From: a virus
Taxonomy: Duplodnaviria; Caudoviricetes
IMG/VR virus record: IMGVR_UViG_2731957577_000001
Span: 134,000-197,999 of that record
DNA length: 64,000 bases
Reading direction: 5' to 3' (one strand)
Each line of letters opens with the position of its first letter. Within the stretch, counting starts at the first letter, position 1. Position numbers and translations under genes: made by a program. This document shows, in pieces, positions 3,456 to 29,968 of the stretch. The notes under the pieces were generated by a model. That model was not told the DNA's origin. It searched no databases and saw only the letters and a program-made list of their open reading frames with translations.

Positions 3456-3620
3456 TCAGTCCAAGGAATCATAGAATTTTCGAATCATCGAGCCGATGAT
3501 TTTCCATCCGATGTACACCACGAGAGCAAAAATCACGATGGGTGCAAGGAACATCAACACATGAAAGGCAATGTAGAGCACCAGCAAAATCAGGGCAATG
3601 AGACACAGAAATCGAAGCAC
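3456..3620 (-). CDS. Small hydrophobic membrane protein (54 aa, below ORF-track cutoff)
   Basis: GAGGTG SD, GTG start, MLRFLCLIALILLVLYIAFHVLMFLAPIVIFALVVYIGWKIIGSMIRKFYDSLD. Confidence 0.7.
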   Translation of the reverse strand: MLRFLCLIALILLVLYIAFHVLMFLAPIVIFALVVYIGWKIIGSMIRKFYDSLD

Positions 3621-3642
3621 AGGATTCACCTCATATTCTTGA

Positions 3643-4323
3643 TCACCGCCGAATGGTTTTCTCGGCCCATTCGGAGAAGGTGAGGTTCAGCGGTGTCAAA
3701 ATGTCATTGTCAAACTCACCTCCCTGAAAGGTATCAAAAACTTGGCGCAGGGGCCAACCGGTCTGATTCGACCGTCCTTGAATGTAGAGGTGGTCATTAT
3801 TCGGGGTTTGTACCCACCGATATGGAAACGTCTGTAGCTGAGTCAGAGACTTGACTTTCTCGTTGTCAAAGTAACAAAGCATCCCTCCGTGGTGGACGTT
3901 TGAATAGGGAAACTGATAGACTGGTGAATCGTCTTTCAGGAACTGGTCGGTATAACAGCACACAGCCGCATGGACCAGGCGCTCCCCTTTCACCCGGAAA
4001 GCAAAAACCATTTTGGGATAGGGCACTTGGTGAAAGGTATCCGTGTGGTACACGACGTCAAACTGTCCGCCTTCCCAGGTCAAAAAGACCCACTCCGACT
4101 CATCCCCCATCTTGGCGTATTTGACCGTCCCGGGCGGCAGGGTCGGTGACGCAGCAACGAGCTCATATTGCTGGGCGGATGATTCCGAAGGCTCAATGGA
4201 CGAGAGTTCAATATAGTGCAACAAGCGATCGGTGGTGATATGAAACGAGCGCTTGACCCCGTCGTCATCAAACTCAATCAGGGGCAAGTGCTCATCATCC
4301 AACGTGATTACAACGGCAGCCAT
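3643..4323 (-). CDS. Prokaryotic E2 family D-like protein (PRTRC protein B-like)
   Basis: VP.P.MVF and Y.FPYSNV..GG.LC motif with candidate catalytic Cys. Confidence 0.8.
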   Translation of the reverse strand: MAAVVITLDDEHLPLIEFDDDGVKRSFHITTDRLLHYIELSSIEPSESSAQQYELVAASPTLPPGTVKYAKMGDESEWVFLTWEGGQFDVVYHTDTFHQVPYPKMVFAFRVKGERLVHAAVCCYTDQFLKDDSPVYQFPYSNVHHGGMLCYFDNEKVKSLTQLQTFPYRWVQTPNNDHLYIQGRSNQTGWPLRQVFDTFQGGEFDNDILTPLNLTFSEWAEKTIRR

Positions 4324-19929: not shown

Positions 19930-20115
19930 AAACAACACTCCTTTCCGAGCTTCATGAACAAGTCACAGCACATTCATCACAAATCGCTCTCCTAAATCAG
20001 CCGATAGGCTTGAAGGGCATTACACAACCAGAAACACAGTATACCCTAACTTACCACCACTTTGAACATCCCGTAGGGGACATGAAACACCATACACATG
20101 ACACATGGATGACCA

Positions 20116-20290
20116 TTAGATGAACCTTGTATGACTGAAAAGAAACTTGTGAGATATGTCCTTGAAACACCGAAAAGACCCTCGTGTAATATGCTCTTGA
20201 AACAACCAAAAGACCATTTCGAGATATGCACTTGAAACCTCGAAAAGCCCCTTTTTGTGTGGGCTTGAAACACCAAAAAGACCCTGCCAA
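20116..20290. repeat. Five ~35-bp direct repeats (core CTTGAAACACCNAAAAGACC)
   Basis: Cores at 20126, 20161, 20196, 20231, 20264 in non-coding DNA. Confidence 0.8.
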
Positions 20291-20520
20291 ACCCCGCACG
20301 AGGCACCGCCAAGGACCTGCACACGATAATGCCGGATTACCACAAGTTGATGATGTATCGGCTTGCATCGAGTCATGGACATGGGGCACAGAGAGAGAAG
20401 CAGAGAGGGGAGGATGGGAGTGTGCATGTGGGGTAGGGGAGAGACATGCGTACATCCGCATCCCGGAGGGTTGGGACAGGGGCTGCATCGTTCCAGCCCC
20501 CATCCCGGTCTGCGTGATGC

Positions 20521-23500
20521 TTACTCGTAGACACAGAAGCCCACAATGGCAAACTTCACAGTATGCTTGCCATTGAACTCGGCTTCCTCGACGTCGGCCA
20601 CAAAGGCCTTGTGTCCGCTGAAGAAGGGATAGGCAGAGGCATAGAGACGGCCAACCTTGAGACCATTGAAATAGACAAAGGCTACAAGGTTGCCGGTGAG
20701 TTTCTCTTCTTCATAGCGGATGCCGATGATGCCACCATTCTTGAGGGCGGCTTCGACTTTCTCACCAGAGATGCCACGCAACACACTCATGGAGACGTTG
20801 AAGTGGCTTGGCGCGACTGCCTCAATGGTGTTCGGTGTCTTGGTACCAGAGACGACCATGCAAGCCGCCAACAGTTGACGCTTGGCCGCCACCCACGGGA
20901 AGGCATGGGCTTCACTCTTGGATTCGGCATAGGTCATGTGATAGGCGACATAGCCAATCTCTTCAGGAGCAAAACCAGCTTCGAGAGCGGCGATGGCTCG
21001 TTGAGCCTTCTCGACGATGGCACCGATCTTGTTCTTGCGTTCTTCCTCGATGCGATTCTTGCCGGTCACATAGAGCGGCGATTTATCGTCTCCATCGACC
21101 GCAGCCAGCAGGTTCTCGAGTTGCTTCTCGGAATACTCGAACGCCTGGGAGATCGCATAGCCATATTCCCGCTTGATCGGCGCGATATGCTTCTTCAACG
21201 CCTCGAAGCGCGCGGGATCCATGACGATGCAGGAGCTGAGTTCACCAAGGATGTTACAGCTCATGTCCTCCTTGTTCATGGACTCGACCACATCGAGGAT
21301 GTTGGCCTCGAGATAGTCCTGAACATGCTTGCGGACCTGAGACAACACACTTCCAGTGAAGCGCCCTTCACGACCACGACGAGCGGCCATCCAGTCTGGA
21401 TTGAACCAGACGCGACGACCGAGTTTCTCGTTCCACACCGAGACAAACTCAGGTGGATTGCCGATGAAGGACAGCTCATCCTTCAGATGCTCTTCATACG
21501 CGCCACCATGCTTCGGACGGTCAATCTCCCAACCTTGGCACAGACGCAGGAGTTCGATCCAACGTTCATACCGCTCGATCTCCGCCAGCAGGTCTTCCTT
21601 ATTGCCGACGCCCATCGCCACCATATAGCCAAGGCGGCGGACGGCATCGGCCAAACGAGTCGCATAGTTCGTCAGCTGGCCGATCTTATTCGGCACGAGC
21701 TTGCGAACCACCCAAGCCTTGGACATGTCATGAATGGCCTGAATCAGTTCATGACCATACAACGTATCCTCGAACTTGAGTGTCCAACCATCCTGCTCCA
21801 CGTCATCAAAGGCAATGGCCTGAGCTTCGCCCCAATCCATCGCCCACGGGCAACCTTCGACCCACTCATAGTTGCCATCCTCCAGACGGCGGAAGGATTT
21901 ATCGAGGATGGCGGGATAGGACTTCTTCTTCAGAACCTCGACGATCTCCGCCTGTGTCGTCGCCAGAGTGGTATCACCATCATTATCGGCGCCACCCTGC
22001 TGAACAGTGGCAAAGTCATGGACACTCATGACACACAGGTTCTCAAAGCCACCCTTGGCCGCGGCACGCACATAGTTCTGCGGCGCCACGCATTTAACCA
22101 GAGCGGCTTCACCCTTGGCAATCGCGGGATTACGCATAAGCGCCACTTCCCGAGTCTCAATGCTGCGGCTGTCGTCGGACACCATGAAGACGGTGTTCGG
22201 ACGCAGACCGATGTGTTCCGGCACGATGACTTCGCCTTCTGGGCAGAGCCGGTGCGCTTCCAGAATCGCATACGGATCTTGCACCATCCAGCGATAGTGA
22301 CCTTCGACCGGAATCATGCCCTTGGTCCACATGTCCGCGATGTTCATCAGGATGTCCCGAGCGTACTTCTTCATCTGCAAGTCTTTCAGGGTGAAAGGCG
22401 CTGCAAACAAGAAGTGGGTGAAGGTCGATACCAGTGTCTTGTTCAGCACCTCTTCGGCTTCTTCGTCCTCCAGGCTCAGGATCTCCTCTTGAGACGGAAG
22501 TCCGACATACTCAGAGATCAACTCGGGATCATGCAGCATGTCGACCAGACGATCCAGATGCCGTGTGACAATCTTCTTCGCCGTCTCCGCGCCCATGCTC
22601 ATGATGTGCATGAACTGATACGGAAGCAGCGTGAACTTCTTGCAGTTACGCGCCTGCTTGTTGAACAAGGCAATGCGCAGGGTGATGGTATGCTTCATCA
22701 GGTCGATATTGCGATAATCGCCCTTGACAGCGCCCTCCATCGCCACAATGTCTTCCTCGAAATACTTCTCAAGGCCTGGGACATAGACCATCAGACCCTT
22801 GGTGAAGGGAGTAATGCGAATCTGGAACGCCGAGCTGCGGACATCAAATTCCTTGCAGAGCGTCTTCCAGACCCGAGCATTGCAGAACACCAGGCCATCA
22901 CCCACCGCAAACTTCTGCGGGAACTTCGCGGCATCAAAGACCTCGAACTGCTTGGTCTCCATGTTGAAGGCCTTGAACTTTCCGGTCTTCACAATGGCAT
23001 GGGCCTGACGCGCCACACGCATGGTAAACTTGCCGCCGACGATGGAATACTCACCATTGGCATGCTCCACAATCTCCGTGCCAAACGTAATCGCCCGGCT
23101 CGGGATGGTGTTGGTGGACGCCAAGCCAAAGCGCTTCATGCCCTTGGTGATGTCCAGCACCCATTTGCCGTCCTTCTTCTTGGCAAAGGCGCGGAAGTCC
23201 ATGCCGATTGCCTCAAAGACTTTCGGCACCGACAGATCGACCAGGAACACACCTTGCAGCGTGCGGTCCTGAGATGGAGAGGCCATGAAATACTCAGCCT
23301 TGTGAACCCTGTTGCCACCCTTGATGAAGAAGCCGTTGTGAACGACATGTTCACGCATCGCTTCGCTCTCCGGCTCCATGTTCTTGAGGTTCAGGTTCAC
23401 ATAGCATAGAACCGGAAGCACACGCACACCATTGACCTCGACGACCTTGTGAAGCAGAGCGTCCGTCAAAGCGCTCTGATTCTGACGCTGATACCCTGAG

Positions 23501-23688
23501 CGTGGATCCTCATCGACCAAGACGCGGGGATCCGCATAGTTGAGCGTGGAGACATAGCCATTGAGTTCTGCATCCCAAACCATTGCATTGACGTCGGCGC
23601 GAAGGACGGTGATGCCATAACGCTTCTTGCTGCTCTTCATGATGATCTCCTCCTGGATGTGGTTGTTGATGAGGGTGGTGTGGTTCAT
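20521..23688 (-). CDS. Single-subunit two-barrel RNA polymerase of the cellular RdRP family (SPbeta YonO-like)
   Basis: SPSQ.R, R.GLA.TNT, GDG, SAFQIR...KG, RNP.I..GE and catalytic GGADNDGD motifs in RdRP order; start ambiguous (23640, 23688 or ~23757). Confidence 0.85.
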   Translation of the reverse strand: MNHTTLINNHIQEEIIMKSSKKRYGITVLRADVNAMVWDAELNGYVSTLNYADPRVLVDEDPRSGYQRQNQSALTDALLHKVVEVNGVRVLPVLCYVNLNLKNMEPESEAMREHVVHNGFFIKGGNRVHKAEYFMASPSQDRTLQGVFLVDLSVPKVFEAIGMDFRAFAKKKDGKWVLDITKGMKRFGLASTNTIPSRAITFGTEIVEHANGEYSIVGGKFTMRVARQAHAIVKTGKFKAFNMETKQFEVFDAAKFPQKFAVGDGLVFCNARVWKTLCKEFDVRSSAFQIRITPFTKGLMVYVPGLEKYFEEDIVAMEGAVKGDYRNIDLMKHTITLRIALFNKQARNCKKFTLLPYQFMHIMSMGAETAKKIVTRHLDRLVDMLHDPELISEYVGLPSQEEILSLEDEEAEEVLNKTLVSTFTHFLFAAPFTLKDLQMKKYARDILMNIADMWTKGMIPVEGHYRWMVQDPYAILEAHRLCPEGEVIVPEHIGLRPNTVFMVSDDSRSIETREVALMRNPAIAKGEAALVKCVAPQNYVRAAAKGGFENLCVMSVHDFATVQQGGADNDGDTTLATTQAEIVEVLKKKSYPAILDKSFRRLEDGNYEWVEGCPWAMDWGEAQAIAFDDVEQDGWTLKFEDTLYGHELIQAIHDMSKAWVVRKLVPNKIGQLTNYATRLADAVRRLGYMVAMGVGNKEDLLAEIERYERWIELLRLCQGWEIDRPKHGGAYEEHLKDELSFIGNPPEFVSVWNEKLGRRVWFNPDWMAARRGREGRFTGSVLSQVRKHVQDYLEANILDVVESMNKEDMSCNILGELSSCIVMDPARFEALKKHIAPIKREYGYAISQAFEYSEKQLENLLAAVDGDDKSPLYVTGKNRIEEERKNKIGAIVEKAQRAIAALEAGFAPEEIGYVAYHMTYAESKSEAHAFPWVAAKRQLLAACMVVSGTKTPNTIEAVAPSHFNVSMSVLRGISGEKVEAALKNGGIIGIRYEEEKLTGNLVAFVYFNGLKVGRLYASAYPFFSGHKAFVADVEEAEFNGKHTVKFAIVGFCVYE

Positions 23689-23756
23689 GAACATTTCCTC
23701 CTTGGAATTCATAAGATTCTGATATTGATAGGCATTGAAAGGCACTTCATGATTCA

Positions 23757-24182
23757 TCACAGATCCAGCTCCTTGTTCTCGTATTTGTCGACCCATTCCC
23801 AGTAGAGGTCGAATGCAGACTCCACACTGGCTTTGTCGATGAGTTTGACCAAGGTGTGTTGGAGGCCATATCGCCCTTTGAAGGAGAATGAAATGCCAAA
23901 CACAATGACGGGCTGCGGAAACACCTCATGGCGATTGCGCCACCTTGCCCCAACCGCGATACTATAGACGCCAAGCACATCGACTTGGCCCAAGAAGAAC
24001 GTATGGTCCTTCTTGTCAAAGGCGGTGGTGAAGTCGACGGGAACCCCATAGAGATACCCATCGGCTCCATAGAGTCGGTCCTCCACTTGCGTGGAGACGC
24101 GGAAGTCGCGTCCGAAGACCTGCTCAAAGTGCAAAATGAGCATGTCCTCGATCCGTTGACCATAGCTTTGACGAATCCACAT
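23757..24182 (-). CDS. Putative PD-(D/E)XK nuclease-fold protein
   Basis: G..IE helix, then ED...GAD......VDFT; AAGGAGG SD; coupled to the polymerase gene. Confidence 0.55.
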   Translation of the reverse strand: MWIRQSYGQRIEDMLILHFEQVFGRDFRVSTQVEDRLYGADGYLYGVPVDFTTAFDKKDHTFFLGQVDVLGVYSIAVGARWRNRHEVFPQPVIVFGISFSFKGRYGLQHTLVKLIDKASVESAFDLYWEWVDKYENKELDL

Positions 24183-24211
24183 AGGGAACTCCTCCTTCGA
24201 GCGTTTTTGAG

Positions 24212-24528
24212 AAAAAAGAAAAAGCCTCATGTAGGGACAATGACGAACTCATCCCTACAAAAGGCGGGGAATCAAGAATTCTCTCCATGCTTGGATAGGG
24301 TTTCTATCGTGCGACAAGCATGGCGTCTTTGTCCTTGTACCCTGTGTGCTATGGACAAAGACACAGCATCACACACAGGGAGCGTGTGGTGTTTCACGGA
24401 TCGAATGCAGCCACGCTTCCTGCATTCGACCGGACCACGGCATCCTCTGAATCACCTGTCGTCATCACAGGACTGCAGATCCAGAGAACCCATGATCATC
24501 TGCTCGTCTGAGCCAATCAGACGAACAG
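24212..24528 (-). ncRNA. Candidate structured RNA/leader: six stems, two pseudoknots, terminal intrinsic terminator
   Basis: Perfect 9-10-bp stems, loop complementarities, G-U wobbles that favour the minus strand. Confidence 0.6.
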
Positions 24529-25041
24529 CGTCAGCACAATGAACTCCACAGCTTGCCAAGCGATGAAGAAGGGCCAGAACAATCCCATCGTCGCCAGGAT
24601 CACGAGACCCGCAAACCACAAGCTGCCATACGAAAGACCATCTAAGAGATTGCCAAATGTCAATTGGCGACCTAATAGATAACGCTTAATCAACCAAATC
24701 AATGCGGTGACAAAGAACACCACAGCAAATCCCGTCAACAAGGCACCCGTGATGGTGGAGCAACCCCAACTCGCCAGAACCGCAGCACTCGCCACGGTCA
24801 CATGGCTGGTGTGCTTGCGAATCATCGCCTCCAACTTCCGAGCTCCAGCCTGGATCTTCTCCCACACCTTGCCGCCAATCGTCTTAAAGAAGCATTTTGC
24901 TTTGTCCACAAAGCCCATCTTCTCTTCCTCCTTCTTCTCTTCGTTCACAATCTCTGCATCAATCACCAACGACGTCTTTGTGTCCTTCGCCTCAGCACCC
25001 ACACGACCAAACCCACCAAACAACAGCTCATGCAACGTCAT
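24517..25041 (-). CDS. Multi-pass membrane protein
   Basis: AAGGAGG SD; 3-4 hydrophobic segments. Confidence 0.75.
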   Translation of the reverse strand: MTLHELLFGGFGRVGAEAKDTKTSLVIDAEIVNEEKKEEEKMGFVDKAKCFFKTIGGKVWEKIQAGARKLEAMIRKHTSHVTVASAAVLASWGCSTITGALLTGFAVVFFVTALIWLIKRYLLGRQLTFGNLLDGLSYGSLWFAGLVILATMGLFWPFFIAWQAVEFIVLTLFV

Positions 25042-25146
25042 GACAACATTCCTCCTTGCGTACCATGCTCGCCAGCAGATTGGTTTTGGTGTACCGAGTA
25101 CACCATGAGACCCACCTCATCAGAGGTGAGTCCGAGCTGTACTCGG

Positions 25147-25359
25147 TCAGGACGCCAAGTGCGCATACATCTTGTATCCCTTCAGCGTCAGGTTCACGGC
25201 AAAGCCCTCTTGCTTCGTGTGCCAAACATGAACAATGCCCTCGTCTTCGAGGGCACGGAAGTTTTCCAAGTGTAGTCCATACGGCACCAGCGTCTTCACC
25301 AGCACAAACTTGTTTTGGCGACGTGCATCTACGAGAATCCTTGCGAGGCTTTCCGACAT
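25147..25359 (-). CDS. Putative winged-helix protein, paralogue of 11389..11670
   Basis: AGGAGG SD; LA.ILV.A...N..V...L..YGL.L...LED.G.V...T..GY..Y. Confidence 0.7.
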   Translation of the reverse strand: MSESLARILVDARRQNKFVLVKTLVPYGLHLENFRALEDEGIVHVWHTKQEGFAVNLTLKGYKMYAHLAS

Positions 25360-25720
25360 GAAGTTCACCCTCCTGCAGATGTTTTTGGGCATGAAAAGGG
25401 GGTGGGGCATCGAACGCCGCCACCCACATGCCAACAATTCAACCTATCACCCCGCGCAATTTTTTATATTTTGTGGCCCCTATATGGCGTTTCCTTTTCC
25501 TGTAAACTATGGAGGGAGAGAAAAAGGGAGAGGGGAAGAGAGGAAATCGGTGCAGTGTACAATAAAGGTGTTCTATGAATTACCCCACCGGGGACAAGCC
25601 CATATGACTGGCTATGACCCCTGGCCGTGGCCACGCGCAGTCAGGTATCGTTTTATGTTCTGAGGCGTCTTGGCCAAAAATTTTTTTATACTACCTGTAG
25701 GTCTCTATAGCGAAATTTCG

Positions 25721-25748
25721 TATAATGGGAATGATGAAAGGCATTACA
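25721..25748 (+). promoter_or_regulatory. -10 box TATAAT followed by operator TGAAAGGCATTACA
   Basis: Start of the plus-strand gene block; motif repeated through the window. Confidence 0.7.
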
Positions 25749-25764
25749 GAGGGGAGAGGGGATC

Positions 25765-26346
25765 ATGCTGCTCTTTATCGACACAGAAACCGGAGGACTG
25801 AATCCAGACAAACATTCCTTGTTGCAAGTTGCGATGCAACTGTATGACGGAGAGAACGAGCATGAACCGTTCACCCTCTTTATCAAGCATGAGGAGTATG
25901 TCGTGACAGAAGAAGCCATGCGGATCAATGGTCTCAGCCTTAGCGACATCAACAAGTACGGCTTCACGCCAACGGAAGCTGTCAGTCAAATCCTGTCCTG
26001 GATACGGGAAATGGACCTGATGAAAGAGAAACCGACCCTGGCCGGGCACAACATCCATTTTGACCGAAGGTTCTTGCAGAAGTTGTTTCGGGACGGTAGT
26101 TGTGACCTTGATAATTTCTTCAGCTATCGAACGCTTGATACAGCCTCGGTGATTCGGTTTCTGAAGGATGCCGAGATCCTCCCAGCGGACTTTCCGGATG
26201 GGTTGCACGACGCCGCGAAGGCGCTTGGGATCCGTGTCGTGGATGCACACACCGCGATCGGAGATGTCCGTGTGAACATCCAGCTCTATAAGCGACTGAA
26301 ACAACTCGTGAGAGGAGAATTCCAATGGGAAGAGTGCTTGCCATGA
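25765..26346 (+). CDS. DEDDh 3'-5' exonuclease (DnaQ-like)
   Basis: IDTETGGL, AGHN..FD, LDT, H.A..D. Confidence 0.92.
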   Translation: MLLFIDTETGGLNPDKHSLLQVAMQLYDGENEHEPFTLFIKHEEYVVTEEAMRINGLSLSDINKYGFTPTEAVSQILSWIREMDLMKEKPTLAGHNIHFDRRFLQKLFRDGSCDLDNFFSYRTLDTASVIRFLKDAEILPADFPDGLHDAAKALGIRVVDAHTAIGDVRVNIQLYKRLKQLVRGEFQWEECLP

Positions 26347-26942
26347 GCGACATTCATGGACAATACATTCCGTTCCAACAGGTTCTCTATGACGCAAAGT
26401 ATGACCCGAAGGAAGATACTTTGATTCTCTGTGGAGACTATTGTGACCGCGGTCCGCAGACGAAACAGGTGATCGAAGAAGTGATGAGTCTGGTGGCCAA
26501 AGGCGCCGTGGCCCTAAAGGGCAATCACGACGACTGGATGATCCGCTACGCTCTGCGAGAGATGGAGATAGACGAGGAAAGCTCATGGCTGGAGCAGGGT
26601 GGGAGAGAGACCCTCGAATCCTATGAAGATGAGATGGACGATTTATATTGGCATGCCCGATGGATGGACTCGAATCTCAAGCTCTACCACGAAACCGACC
26701 AATTCATCTTCGCGCATGCCGGCGTCTTGCCGGGTGTTTCCCTGGAGTCCCAACCGCCGTGGGCGCTGCTTTGGCGACGCTACCAGGGACCTTGCCAATT
26801 GGGGAAACTCGTGGTTCATGGCCACACGCCCGTGAAAGAAGTCACTCAGGTCTTTGACCAACTGTTTATTGATACCGGCTCGGTATTCGGCGGAAAATTG
26901 AGCCTCGTCGACCTCACCAATGGAATTGTCTATGCGGCATAG
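26325..26942 (+). CDS. Calcineurin-like metallophosphoesterase (phage Ser/Thr phosphatase-like)
   Basis: SDIHG, GDYCDRG, GNHD, HAG, HGHTP, IDTG. Confidence 0.93.
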   Translation: MGRVLAMSDIHGQYIPFQQVLYDAKYDPKEDTLILCGDYCDRGPQTKQVIEEVMSLVAKGAVALKGNHDDWMIRYALREMEIDEESSWLEQGGRETLESYEDEMDDLYWHARWMDSNLKLYHETDQFIFAHAGVLPGVSLESQPPWALLWRRYQGPCQLGKLVVHGHTPVKEVTQVFDQLFIDTGSVFGGKLSLVDLTNGIVYAA

Positions 26943-29810: not shown

Positions 29811-29885
29811 TGTGGGGTAGCTCATCGGTAGAGCGGTCGGCTGTTAACCGATTGGTCGTGGGTTCGATCCCCACCCCCACAGCCA
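29811..29885 (+). tRNA. tRNA-Asn (GTT)
   Basis: Acceptor TGTGGGG/CCCCACA, anticodon loop CT-GTT-AA, T-loop TTCGATC, encoded CCA. Confidence 0.95.
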
Positions 29886-29892
29886 CTTTCGT

Positions 29893-29968
29893 GCCAGTGT
29901 AGCTCAGTTGGGAGAGCAGCTGCCTTGTAAGTAGCGGGTCACGGGTTCAAATCCTGTCACTGGCTCCA
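29893..29968 (+). tRNA. tRNA-Thr (TGT)
   Basis: Acceptor GCCAGTG/CACTGGC, anticodon loop CT-TGT-AA, T-loop TTCAAAT, encoded CCA. Confidence 0.95.

Follow-up and report, generated by a model that had tools for sequence, protein, structure and literature searches.

The stretch of DNA analyzed here, termed the window, comprises 64,000 nucleotides (nt) of the Caudoviricetes record IMGVR_UViG_2731957577_000001 of IMG/VR (positions 134,000 to 197,999) and forms the end of a 198-kb contig (197999 bases) that belongs to a 3.6-Mb genome. Coordinates below are positions in the window unless a related locus is named. Our subject is a structured RNA, termed the window RNA, that occupies a 334-nt gap (24183-24516, minus strand) between two minus-strand genes (Table 1). 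The gene upstream of it encodes a 174-amino-acid (aa) protein with a module of two transmembrane (TM) segments and ends in a TGA stop codon at 24519-24517; the genes downstream encode a 141-aa protein and an RNA polymerase. The open reading frame (ORF) at 20521-23796 was assigned to the YonO-type single-subunit RNA polymerases because it matches PF05183 and because the metal-binding aspartate motif of two-barrel polymerases is invariant in the polymerase alignment of 23 homologues. On a near-identical public contig, on which the polymerase is called with 1079 instead of 1091 aa, the operon has the order 70-aa protein, 174-aa protein, 334-nt gap, 141-aa protein, and polymerase. The first ATG of this operon is found at 25359, the operon start lies about 0.85 kb upstream of the window RNA, and a divergent control region of about 400 nt (25360-25765) precedes the gene for the 70-aa protein. 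The data presented below indicate that the window RNA is very probably a member of an undescribed family of multi-pseudoknot RNAs, encoded on the minus strand as a part of the early operon of a prophage-plasmid of about 200 kb.

Table 1. Coordinates of the helices of the window RNA (5' arm / 3' arm, minus strand) and of the surrounding genes.
Feature	Coordinates	Strand	Remarks
H0, 12-bp hairpin, 5' boundary of the RNA	24528-17 / 24511-00	-	-19.2 kcal/mol, z -4.7
P1, long hairpin of 8 + 11 + 5 bp	24433-24497	-	-31.3 kcal/mol, z -4.1
H2, 12-bp hairpin with 9-nt loop (24419-24411)	24431-20 / 24410-399	-	-19.1 kcal/mol
PK1, 6 Watson-Crick pairs between H2 loop and linker	24417-12 / 24386-81	-	
Nine-pair stem of the second pseudoknot	24380-72 / 24348-40	-	
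Ten-pair stem of the second pseudoknot	24362-53 / 24334-25	-	
H4, 9-bp hairpin with inner 5-bp hairpin	24323-15 / 24293-85	-	-16.7 kcal/mol, z -4.8
Intrinsic terminator, interrupted stem of 16 pairs, 8-nt loop	24265-24224	-	-24.7 kcal/mol, z -5.8
Alternative linker hairpin, 7 bp	24370-24388	-	-10.4 kcal/mol, z -5.4
Alternative long-range helix, 13 of 14 positions pair	24496-24483 / 24271-24284	-	Competes with P1
Upstream gene, 174-aa protein	24517-25041	-	Conserved C-terminal two-TM module (alignment of 18 homologues)
Shine-Dalgarno sequence (24195-91, strong) and ATG (24182) of the 141-aa protein gene	24182-24195	-	Start agrees with near-identical public contig
Downstream module, 141-aa protein gene and polymerase	20521-24182	-	Headed by the 141-aa protein gene
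Gene for 141-aa, possibly PD-(D/E)XK-like protein	23757-24182	-	Between the RNA and the polymerase
YonO/RdRP-family single-subunit RNA polymerase ORF	20521-23796	-	1091 aa; PF05183, E 1.2e-12
First operon gene, 70-aa protein	25147-25359	-	No Pfam match at E up to 0.1
RNase T-like exonuclease gene	25765-26346	+	Divergent from the RNA operon
Metallophosphatase gene	26325-26942	+	Divergent from the RNA operon

Fold and strand of the window RNA

The helices of the window RNA were recovered with an inverted-repeat finder and then re-derived base by base on the minus-strand RNA. An initial annotation, made from the sequence, had described at this site a minus-strand RNA with two pseudoknots and a terminator. 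All of its stems, the terminator, and both complementarities between a hairpin loop and the linker were recovered position for position, whereas one element, an outer helix formed by 24386-390 and 24434-438, does pair (5 bp) but competes with PK1 and with the base of P1, which is supported by the family. The stems that had been listed for the P1 region correspond to the middle and apex parts of a longer hairpin. The full P1 consists of a basal helix (24497-90 / 24440-33), a middle helix (24488-78 / 24453-43), and an apex (24471-67 / 24459-55), with a 6-nt bulge on the 5' side and a 7-nt apical loop (24466-24460).

H0, with which the RNA begins, contains the stop codon of the upstream two-TM gene in its 5' arm. 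It is followed by P1 and H2, and the loop of the latter provides the 5' strand of PK1. Further downstream, the nine-pair and the ten-pair stems interleave and thus form a second, H-type pseudoknot (24325-24380). The 3' end is formed by H4 and the intrinsic terminator, whose stem is directly followed by a U-rich tract (24223-24209). Two alternative helices were also identified: the linker hairpin, which is incompatible with pairing of PK1 through its 3' strand and of the second pseudoknot through its 5' strand, and the long-range helix given in Table 1.

The minus-strand RNA folds with -149.3 kcal/mol, as compared to -108.8 ± 5.6 kcal/mol for dinucleotide shuffles (z -7.3, and z -8.0 in a separate run), and the z values of the individual helices range from -3.8 to -5.8. 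The plus strand folds at -128.8 kcal/mol (z -5.3 relative to shuffles). Nine G-U pairs of the model are valid only on the minus strand and become A-C mismatches on the other strand, in agreement with the initial annotation, which had read the G-U wobbles as a mark of minus-strand RNA.

Related loci and covariation of the pseudoknots

We fetched approximately 30 loci around homologues of the polymerase, which are designated below by L numbers. The homologues share 33-45% identity with the window polymerase and are found on contigs and plasmids of about 190-260 kb from Bacillus, Paenibacillus, Virgibacillus, and Oceanobacillus, including plasmids of B. licheniformis, B. paralicheniformis, B. thuringiensis, and Paenibacillus. 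The nearest relative (45% identity) is located on a 3.6-kb contig, and plasmids of 235 kb from B. thuringiensis contain a far more distant YonO-like match (~21% identity). Judged by their size alone, the latter may correspond to pBtic235, which is described as a circular jumbo prophage (PMC9700832). No close relatives of the window locus were detected among 60 related genomes, in the phage collection, or in the first contig scan. The contig of 197999 bases is similar in size to the circular plasmids and viral contigs of 190-260 kb that carry polymerase homologues; instead of being an integrated prophage, it may thus represent a jumbo prophage-plasmid in its complete, extrachromosomal form.

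In all fetched loci, a noncoding stretch of 230-830 nt is located directly 3' of the homologous two-TM gene. The arrangement around it is uniform in several respects. (i) The stop codon of the two-TM gene lies within a short hairpin in every related locus, and the sequences of these hairpins differ by lineage. (ii) The RNA is always encoded on the same strand as the homologous PF05183 polymerase and upstream of it, and its orientation with respect to the flanking genes is fixed. (iii) The elements follow a common order, namely, stop-codon hairpin, long P1, H2, and then further hairpins; the RNAs comprise 330-600 nt and at least two pseudoknots. Some lineages have additional small genes inserted between the RNA and the polymerase, which therefore begins at a variable distance of 0 to about 1.7 kb; the link of the RNA to the stop codon upstream is tighter than that to the start of the polymerase gene. 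All four ordered family elements, the stop-codon hairpin, P1, H2/PK1, and the second pseudoknot, are present in the window RNA. Of 17 related loci, 15 have a sense strand that folds more stably than the antisense strand, and the whole-region z values of the relatives range from -0.1 to -5.9.

Sequence motifs are shared by subsets of the family. The P1 apex of the window RNA is identical to that of L020 at 24 of 26 nt, and its 7-nt apical loop is also carried by a mini-hairpin in L004, L012, L018, L021, and L023; another group (L005/L014, L008, L013, L022, and L024) has a different conserved apical loop. An 8-nt motif in the H2 loop is common to the window RNA, L007, L019, L020, and L103. The length and shape of P1 vary widely among the relatives. 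Inspection by eye revealed a kink-turn-like sequence pattern in the internal loop of P1, below the apical mini-hairpin, in L004, L012, L021, and L023; at the place where other relatives show this pattern, the window RNA and L020 have a 5' bulge of 5-6 nt. A closing helix similar in kind to the long-range helix of the window RNA was predicted in L007, L019, and L020, and no counterpart of H4 or of the exact 3' half of the window RNA was recognized in the relatives. The assignment of the window RNA to this family as a homologous member is a probable one, based on synteny, shared topology, and two short motifs.

Several of these loci contain further elements. A 5-bp hairpin with a purine-rich, Shine-Dalgarno-like loop of 6 nt follows the second hairpin in L008, L013, L004, and L009 and shows compensatory changes in its stem; the window RNA does not have this hairpin. 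In L004, a type III hammerhead (RF00008, 49.4 bits, just above the gathering score) is located at 3612-3666 (plus strand of that locus), in the gap that separates the two-TM gene of this operon from the small first gene. No hammerhead was detected in the equivalent 105-nt gap of the window (25042-25146) by an Rfam scan of 24990-25800 at E values up to 5.

The pseudoknots were analyzed across lineages by partner-swap permutations instead of column counts because a MAFFT alignment of the 5' domain of 14 lineages had misaligned the stems. The H2 loop of every lineage can pair with a segment that begins 5-13 nt downstream of this hairpin, and the pairing sequences show no relation from one lineage to another. 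PK1 was observed in 10 lineages, for which the true partners sum to -122.3 kcal/mol, compared to -68.4 ± 6.6 kcal/mol for swapped partners, and none of 20,000 derangements reached the former value. In agreement with this, the observed length of the PK1 helix was never reached in shuffled downstream windows of the individual lineages (0 of 2,000). PK1 amounts to 5 bp only in the L007/L019/L020 subgroup, and it has a mismatch in L104 and L103. The H2 loop is invariant in this subgroup, where its sequence may have another role. The topology of the second pseudoknot, in which a hairpin loop pairs just downstream, was also found in L005, L024, and L022, with different sequences. Its true pairs sum to -78.1 kcal/mol, compared to -44.5 ± 4.4 kcal/mol after swapping (six lineages, 0 of 265). 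This signal is strong in the window RNA, L005, L024, and L022 and weak in L013, L008, and L004. Covariation across related elements, which the initial annotation had proposed as a check of its structure, was thus observed for both pseudoknots. These data are far beyond chance expectation: the structure is real and under selection.

Sequence-based searches were also used to extend the family. A covariance model, termed R1, was built from L020, L104, L007, and L019. Its effective sequence number is 1.5, and P1 is not well aligned in it. The model retrieved a clear copy in a 259-kb plasmid of B. thuringiensis (L103, 1161-1357, E 2e-13). A pattern scan of viral contigs with the apical motif of the window type returned mostly chance matches. 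The corresponding scan with the motif of group A, to which L005, L022, and L024 belong, retrieved only polymerase-bearing contigs and, in addition, a 29-kb fragment (L099) on which the polymerase was not found.

Known RNA families and comparable systems

To identify known families, the sequences were searched with the models of Rfam 15. At the gathering threshold, the whole window contained two tRNAs and no match at the RNA. Relaxed searches, at E values up to 10 for 23700-25100 and up to 5 for 24990-25800, returned only subthreshold noise from small nucleolar RNAs and small RNAs. Among 14 related loci, only a tRNA and the L004 hammerhead were found. The models of riboswitches, ribozymes, T-boxes, and transfer-messenger RNA (tmRNA), as well as those of EAR/epsC, ROOL, GOLLD, HEARO, and OLE, did not match, and ARAGORN predicted no tRNA or tmRNA at the window RNA. 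In literature searches we found no published description of this RNA. The initial annotation had recognized no riboswitch, ribozyme, or tmRNA signature and had considered the element an undescribed, terminator-ended RNA with two pseudoknots on the minus strand; the Rfam results for the window and the 14 loci, together with the covariation of both pseudoknots, bear this out.

Of the known systems, conAn2 provides the closest parallel in position. ConAn is a bipartite antitermination system of pLS20 and other Gram-positive conjugative plasmids, and conAn2 of pLS20 from B. subtilis is an intergenic RNA of 356-383 nt that directly follows the first gene of its operon, starting right behind the stop codon; it acts only in cis and allows RNA polymerase to pass terminators (PMC8191782, PMC10325885). 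Stems of at least 14 pairs resist this antitermination and mark operon ends in pLS20 (PMC10325885). Like conAn2, the window RNA is intergenic, measures about 350 nt, and has its start at the stop codon of an early gene on an extrachromosomal element of Bacillus, with a gap of 334 nt counted from the stop codon at 24519-17 and a distance of about 0.85 kb from the operon start. Further likenesses are its location ahead of a long operon with intrinsic terminators and poor sequence conservation between systems; the cis-only action of conAn2 may be shared as well. The two also differ in several respects. (i) The window operon encodes a phage-type RNA polymerase, whereas conAn operons encode conjugation genes. 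(ii) The features described for conAn2 are a GC-rich tract and a pair of modest stem-loops, whereas the window RNA has covarying pseudoknots. (iii) The predicted terminator of the window RNA is of the long-stem form that resists conAn. (iv) The ConAn1 domain (PF17362, pXO2-34) was detected neither in the 174-aa protein (E up to 0.01) nor in the 70-aa protein (E up to 0.1).

Other structured RNAs share individual traits with the window RNA. EAR and put of HK022 are RNA-only processive antiterminators, which alter RNA polymerase during transcription and thereby enable it to read through terminators further downstream; EAR, from the eps operon of Bacillus, is a pseudoknot-containing RNA that separates two cistrons in Bacillales. 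Both are likewise embedded in operons but, at about 70-120 nt, are much smaller than the window RNA, which has no Rfam 15 match. RNAs of the ROOL, GOLLD, and HEARO type are large multi-pseudoknot RNAs on mobile elements of Bacillota, and no role had been assigned to them at their discovery. They resemble the window RNA in having several pseudoknots, in being borne by mobile elements, and in having been found by comparative analysis. However, none of their Rfam models matches, and the window RNA is shorter (334 nt) and has a fixed place between a membrane-protein gene and a polymerase gene instead of one beside tRNA clusters.

In phage SPbeta, an unannotated noncoding RNA is located at the YonO-dependent late transcription start downstream of yonO (PMC5467207). 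Here too a noncoding RNA adjoins the gene of a YonO-family polymerase in a Bacillus prophage; however, in a comparison by position, the SPbeta RNA forms the 5' end of the late operon transcribed by YonO, whereas the window RNA lies upstream of the polymerase, inside its operon. In relatives of the window locus, noncoding gaps of 0.5-1.3 kb are found directly 3' of the polymerase (L010:8528-9811, L011:8498-9666, L009:8663-9389, L008:8711-9297, L007:8762-9334, and L005:8777-9295), and these may correspond to the position of the SPbeta RNA and of the YonO-dependent start. In the window, an ORF of implausible composition is listed at this place (20051-20503). Together with two other minus-strand ORFs (25028-25429 and 25744-26586), it has a translation rich in Arg, Cys, and Ser and overlaps genes that are called in another frame or on the opposite strand in the near-identical contig; these three ORFs are probably not genes.

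As regards the neighboring proteins, the 174-aa protein has no Pfam match at E values up to 0.01 and no PHROG match. In the two-TM proteins of all related loci, the N-terminal part is variable and the C-terminal part contains two hydrophobic segments with a basic patch between them. The structural model of the 141-aa protein is confident (pLDDT 86) and its structural matches are weak (Foldseek E at least 0.085, VIA Z at most 4.3), PD-(D/E)XK nucleases being enriched among them. A word-indexed search with this protein retrieved no homologue beyond itself; among the related loci, homologues are present in L004, L010, L011, L016, and L017 and missing from many that carry the RNA. Two tRNA genes, Asn-GTT (29811-29885) and Thr-TGT (29893-29968), are located on the plus strand, opposite to the RNA and about 5 kb from it.

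Proposed control of transcription into the polymerase module

The U-rich tract that follows the terminator ends 27 nt before the ATG at 24182, a distance that leaves no room for a promoter. A simple scan of the window for sigma-70-like sites on the sense strand, from the operon start to the polymerase, returned none, and the same was the case for L004, L012, and L009. As there is neither a promoter-like site nor room for one, the operon promoter is the most likely origin of the polymerase transcripts, which would have to pass through the RNA and its terminator. For the same reason, the gating of polymerase expression that the initial annotation had put forward is plausible, as a function that we infer.

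According to our reading of the folds, about seven lineages have a terminator-like end, including L004, L008, the L009 group, the L012 group, L013, and L018; the terminator scanner itself flagged only that of L012 among the relatives. The group A loci have no such end and run straight into the ribosome-binding region of the next gene, and in the L005 fold the ribosome-binding site takes part in a short helix. A conserved core followed by output domains that vary is a typical arrangement in cis-regulators such as riboswitch and leader families. As a further candidate interaction, we considered a kissing contact between the apical loop of P1 and the terminator loop, but the 5-6 pairs concerned occur only in the window RNA and L012 and are not conserved.

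The best-supported reading of these data is that the RNA most likely controls transcription into the polymerase module. More specifically, we tentatively propose a cis-acting read-through or antitermination element that times the expression of the phage polymerase, a reading favored because a promoter has no room downstream, because the terminator is recurrent, and because conAn2 sets a precedent. Immediately after its synthesis, the RNA would influence, in cis, the host RNA polymerase that made it and would decide whether transcription passes the strong 3' terminator into the polymerase genes, as a processive-antitermination or attenuation element in the manner of conAn2, EAR, and put. The phage polymerase, the driver of the later program, would then be made only when the RNA is in an active fold composed of P1, H2/PK1, and the second pseudoknot, possibly with the help of an operon protein. 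The linker hairpin (24388-24370), which is exclusive of both pseudoknots, is a candidate for the inactive fold and would then act as the switch.

A number of observations weigh against this proposal. (i) The terminator stem comprises 16 pairs, and long stems fit the end of a transcript better than a gate. (ii) The terminator does not overlap the conserved core, and no classic antiterminator pairing is evident; a candidate formed by 24334-24 and 24245-35, which pair at 10 of 11 positions, was rejected, as it is within our estimate of chance expectation. (iii) Occlusion of the ribosome-binding site was also considered as a family feature and rejected, as it is inconsistent across lineages. (iv) With 330-600 nt, pseudoknots, and a kink-turn-like motif, the RNAs are more elaborate than put or EAR. 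(v) The upstream proteins have no ConAn1 domain. (vi) The R1 model, which represents one subgroup with an effective number of 1.5, did not match the window RNA, even with filters off. The long stem, the missing overlap with the core, the lack of ConAn1, and the elaborate fold favor instead a stable, trans-acting RNA.

According to this alternative, which we consider somewhat unlikely, a stable noncoding RNA, in the form of a processing product or of the structured 3' end of the transcript for the membrane protein, would act in trans within a ribonucleoprotein. Its partner would be the YonO-type polymerase, the two-TM protein, or a host factor, and the terminator would mark merely its 3' end. 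The RNA is discrete and ornate: at 330-600 nt, with two or more pseudoknots and, in several relatives, a kink-turn-like internal loop, it is closer to large functional RNAs than to simple leaders. Moreover, the invariant link is to the upstream stop codon, with the polymerase at a distance of 0-1.7 kb, and the terminator, which has no overlap with the core, has a very long stem of the kind that marks operon ends in pLS20 (PMC10325885); SPbeta, too, has an unannotated noncoding RNA next to its polymerase module (PMC5467207). However, the RNA has no promoter-like site of its own, and read-through must still occur because no room is left for a promoter of the polymerase module after the window terminator. 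In addition, the group A relatives continue without a terminator into the ribosome-binding region of the next gene, and no partner protein is identifiable, the 141-aa protein gene being missing from many loci that carry the RNA.

A more specific form of the stable-RNA alternative, in which the RNA is a template, primer, or cofactor for the specificity or activity of the RdRP-family polymerase of the same operon, is improbable. It has parallels in the RNAs beside retron and defense-associated reverse transcriptases, IscB and TnpB nucleases, and IS110 recombinases, which are obligate partners of the neighboring enzyme. The initial annotation had also considered an RNA partner of the polymerase; the idea gained no direct support here. 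In the relatives, the RNA is tied more closely to the stop codon upstream.

It is unlikely that the RNA is a sensing attenuator, in which a small molecule, a tRNA, or an operon protein stabilizes the double-pseudoknot fold against the linker hairpin and the long-range helix and thereby sets termination, or translation of the following gene. Such a function would agree with the mutually exclusive folds of the window RNA (linker hairpin versus pseudoknots, long-range helix versus P1), with the highly conserved sequences of the H2 loop motif and the P1 apical loop, and with the two kinds of output domain in the family. On the other hand, the alternative folds were seen in the window RNA only, no conserved helix overlaps the terminator arms, the ribosome-binding site is not consistently occluded, known aptamers are considerably smaller, and no riboswitch, T-box, or leader family of Rfam matches.

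We regard as rather improbable a module for mRNA processing or stability, which would uncouple the decay of the upstream cistron from that of the polymerase cistron through P1-like hairpins that serve as RNase III sites and pseudoknots that block 3' or 5' exonucleases. RNase III sites are found between early genes of phages T7 and SP82, and P1, an interrupted duplex of about 24 bp, falls within the size class of RNase III substrates such as the R sites of T7. The L004 hammerhead, in the preceding intercistronic gap, suggests transcript cutting in the operon of at least one relative, and the stop-codon hairpin could protect the end of the upstream mRNA. Nevertheless, two covarying pseudoknots and conserved loops are not needed for processing sites, and the length and shape of P1 are not constant in the family. 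A DNA-level element (an origin, a packaging site, or a promoter of the phage polymerase) or a chance cluster of inverted repeats is highly improbable: although inverted repeats could form in DNA, the plus strand also surpasses its shuffles, and promoters of YonO-type polymerases are not known (PMC5467207), the covariation of the pseudoknots across lineages has no rationale at the DNA level, the nine G-U pairs are valid only on the gene-sense strand, which is the more stable one in 15 of the 17 loci, and the orientation to the flanking genes is the same in all loci.

YonO-type single-subunit polymerases are distant kin of the cellular multisubunit RNA polymerases and of the eukaryotic polymerases of RNA interference. 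Their promoters, cofactors, and regulation are not known (PMC5467207). The RNAs described here form a conserved and apparently undescribed family of Bacillales prophage-plasmids that encode such polymerases, a candidate new RNA family whose clear covariation makes it ready for curation in the manner of Rfam. An RNA at a fixed position in the polymerase operon offers a handle on how large prophage-plasmids time the switch from host to phage transcription. Should it be an antiterminator, RNA-based processive antitermination would extend from conjugation operons to the control of a phage polymerase, and a far more elaborate fold would be added to that class. Should it be a trans-acting partner of the polymerase, it would represent a new kind of RNA-protein system, in which a phage two-barrel polymerase would be programmed by an RNA or would copy one.

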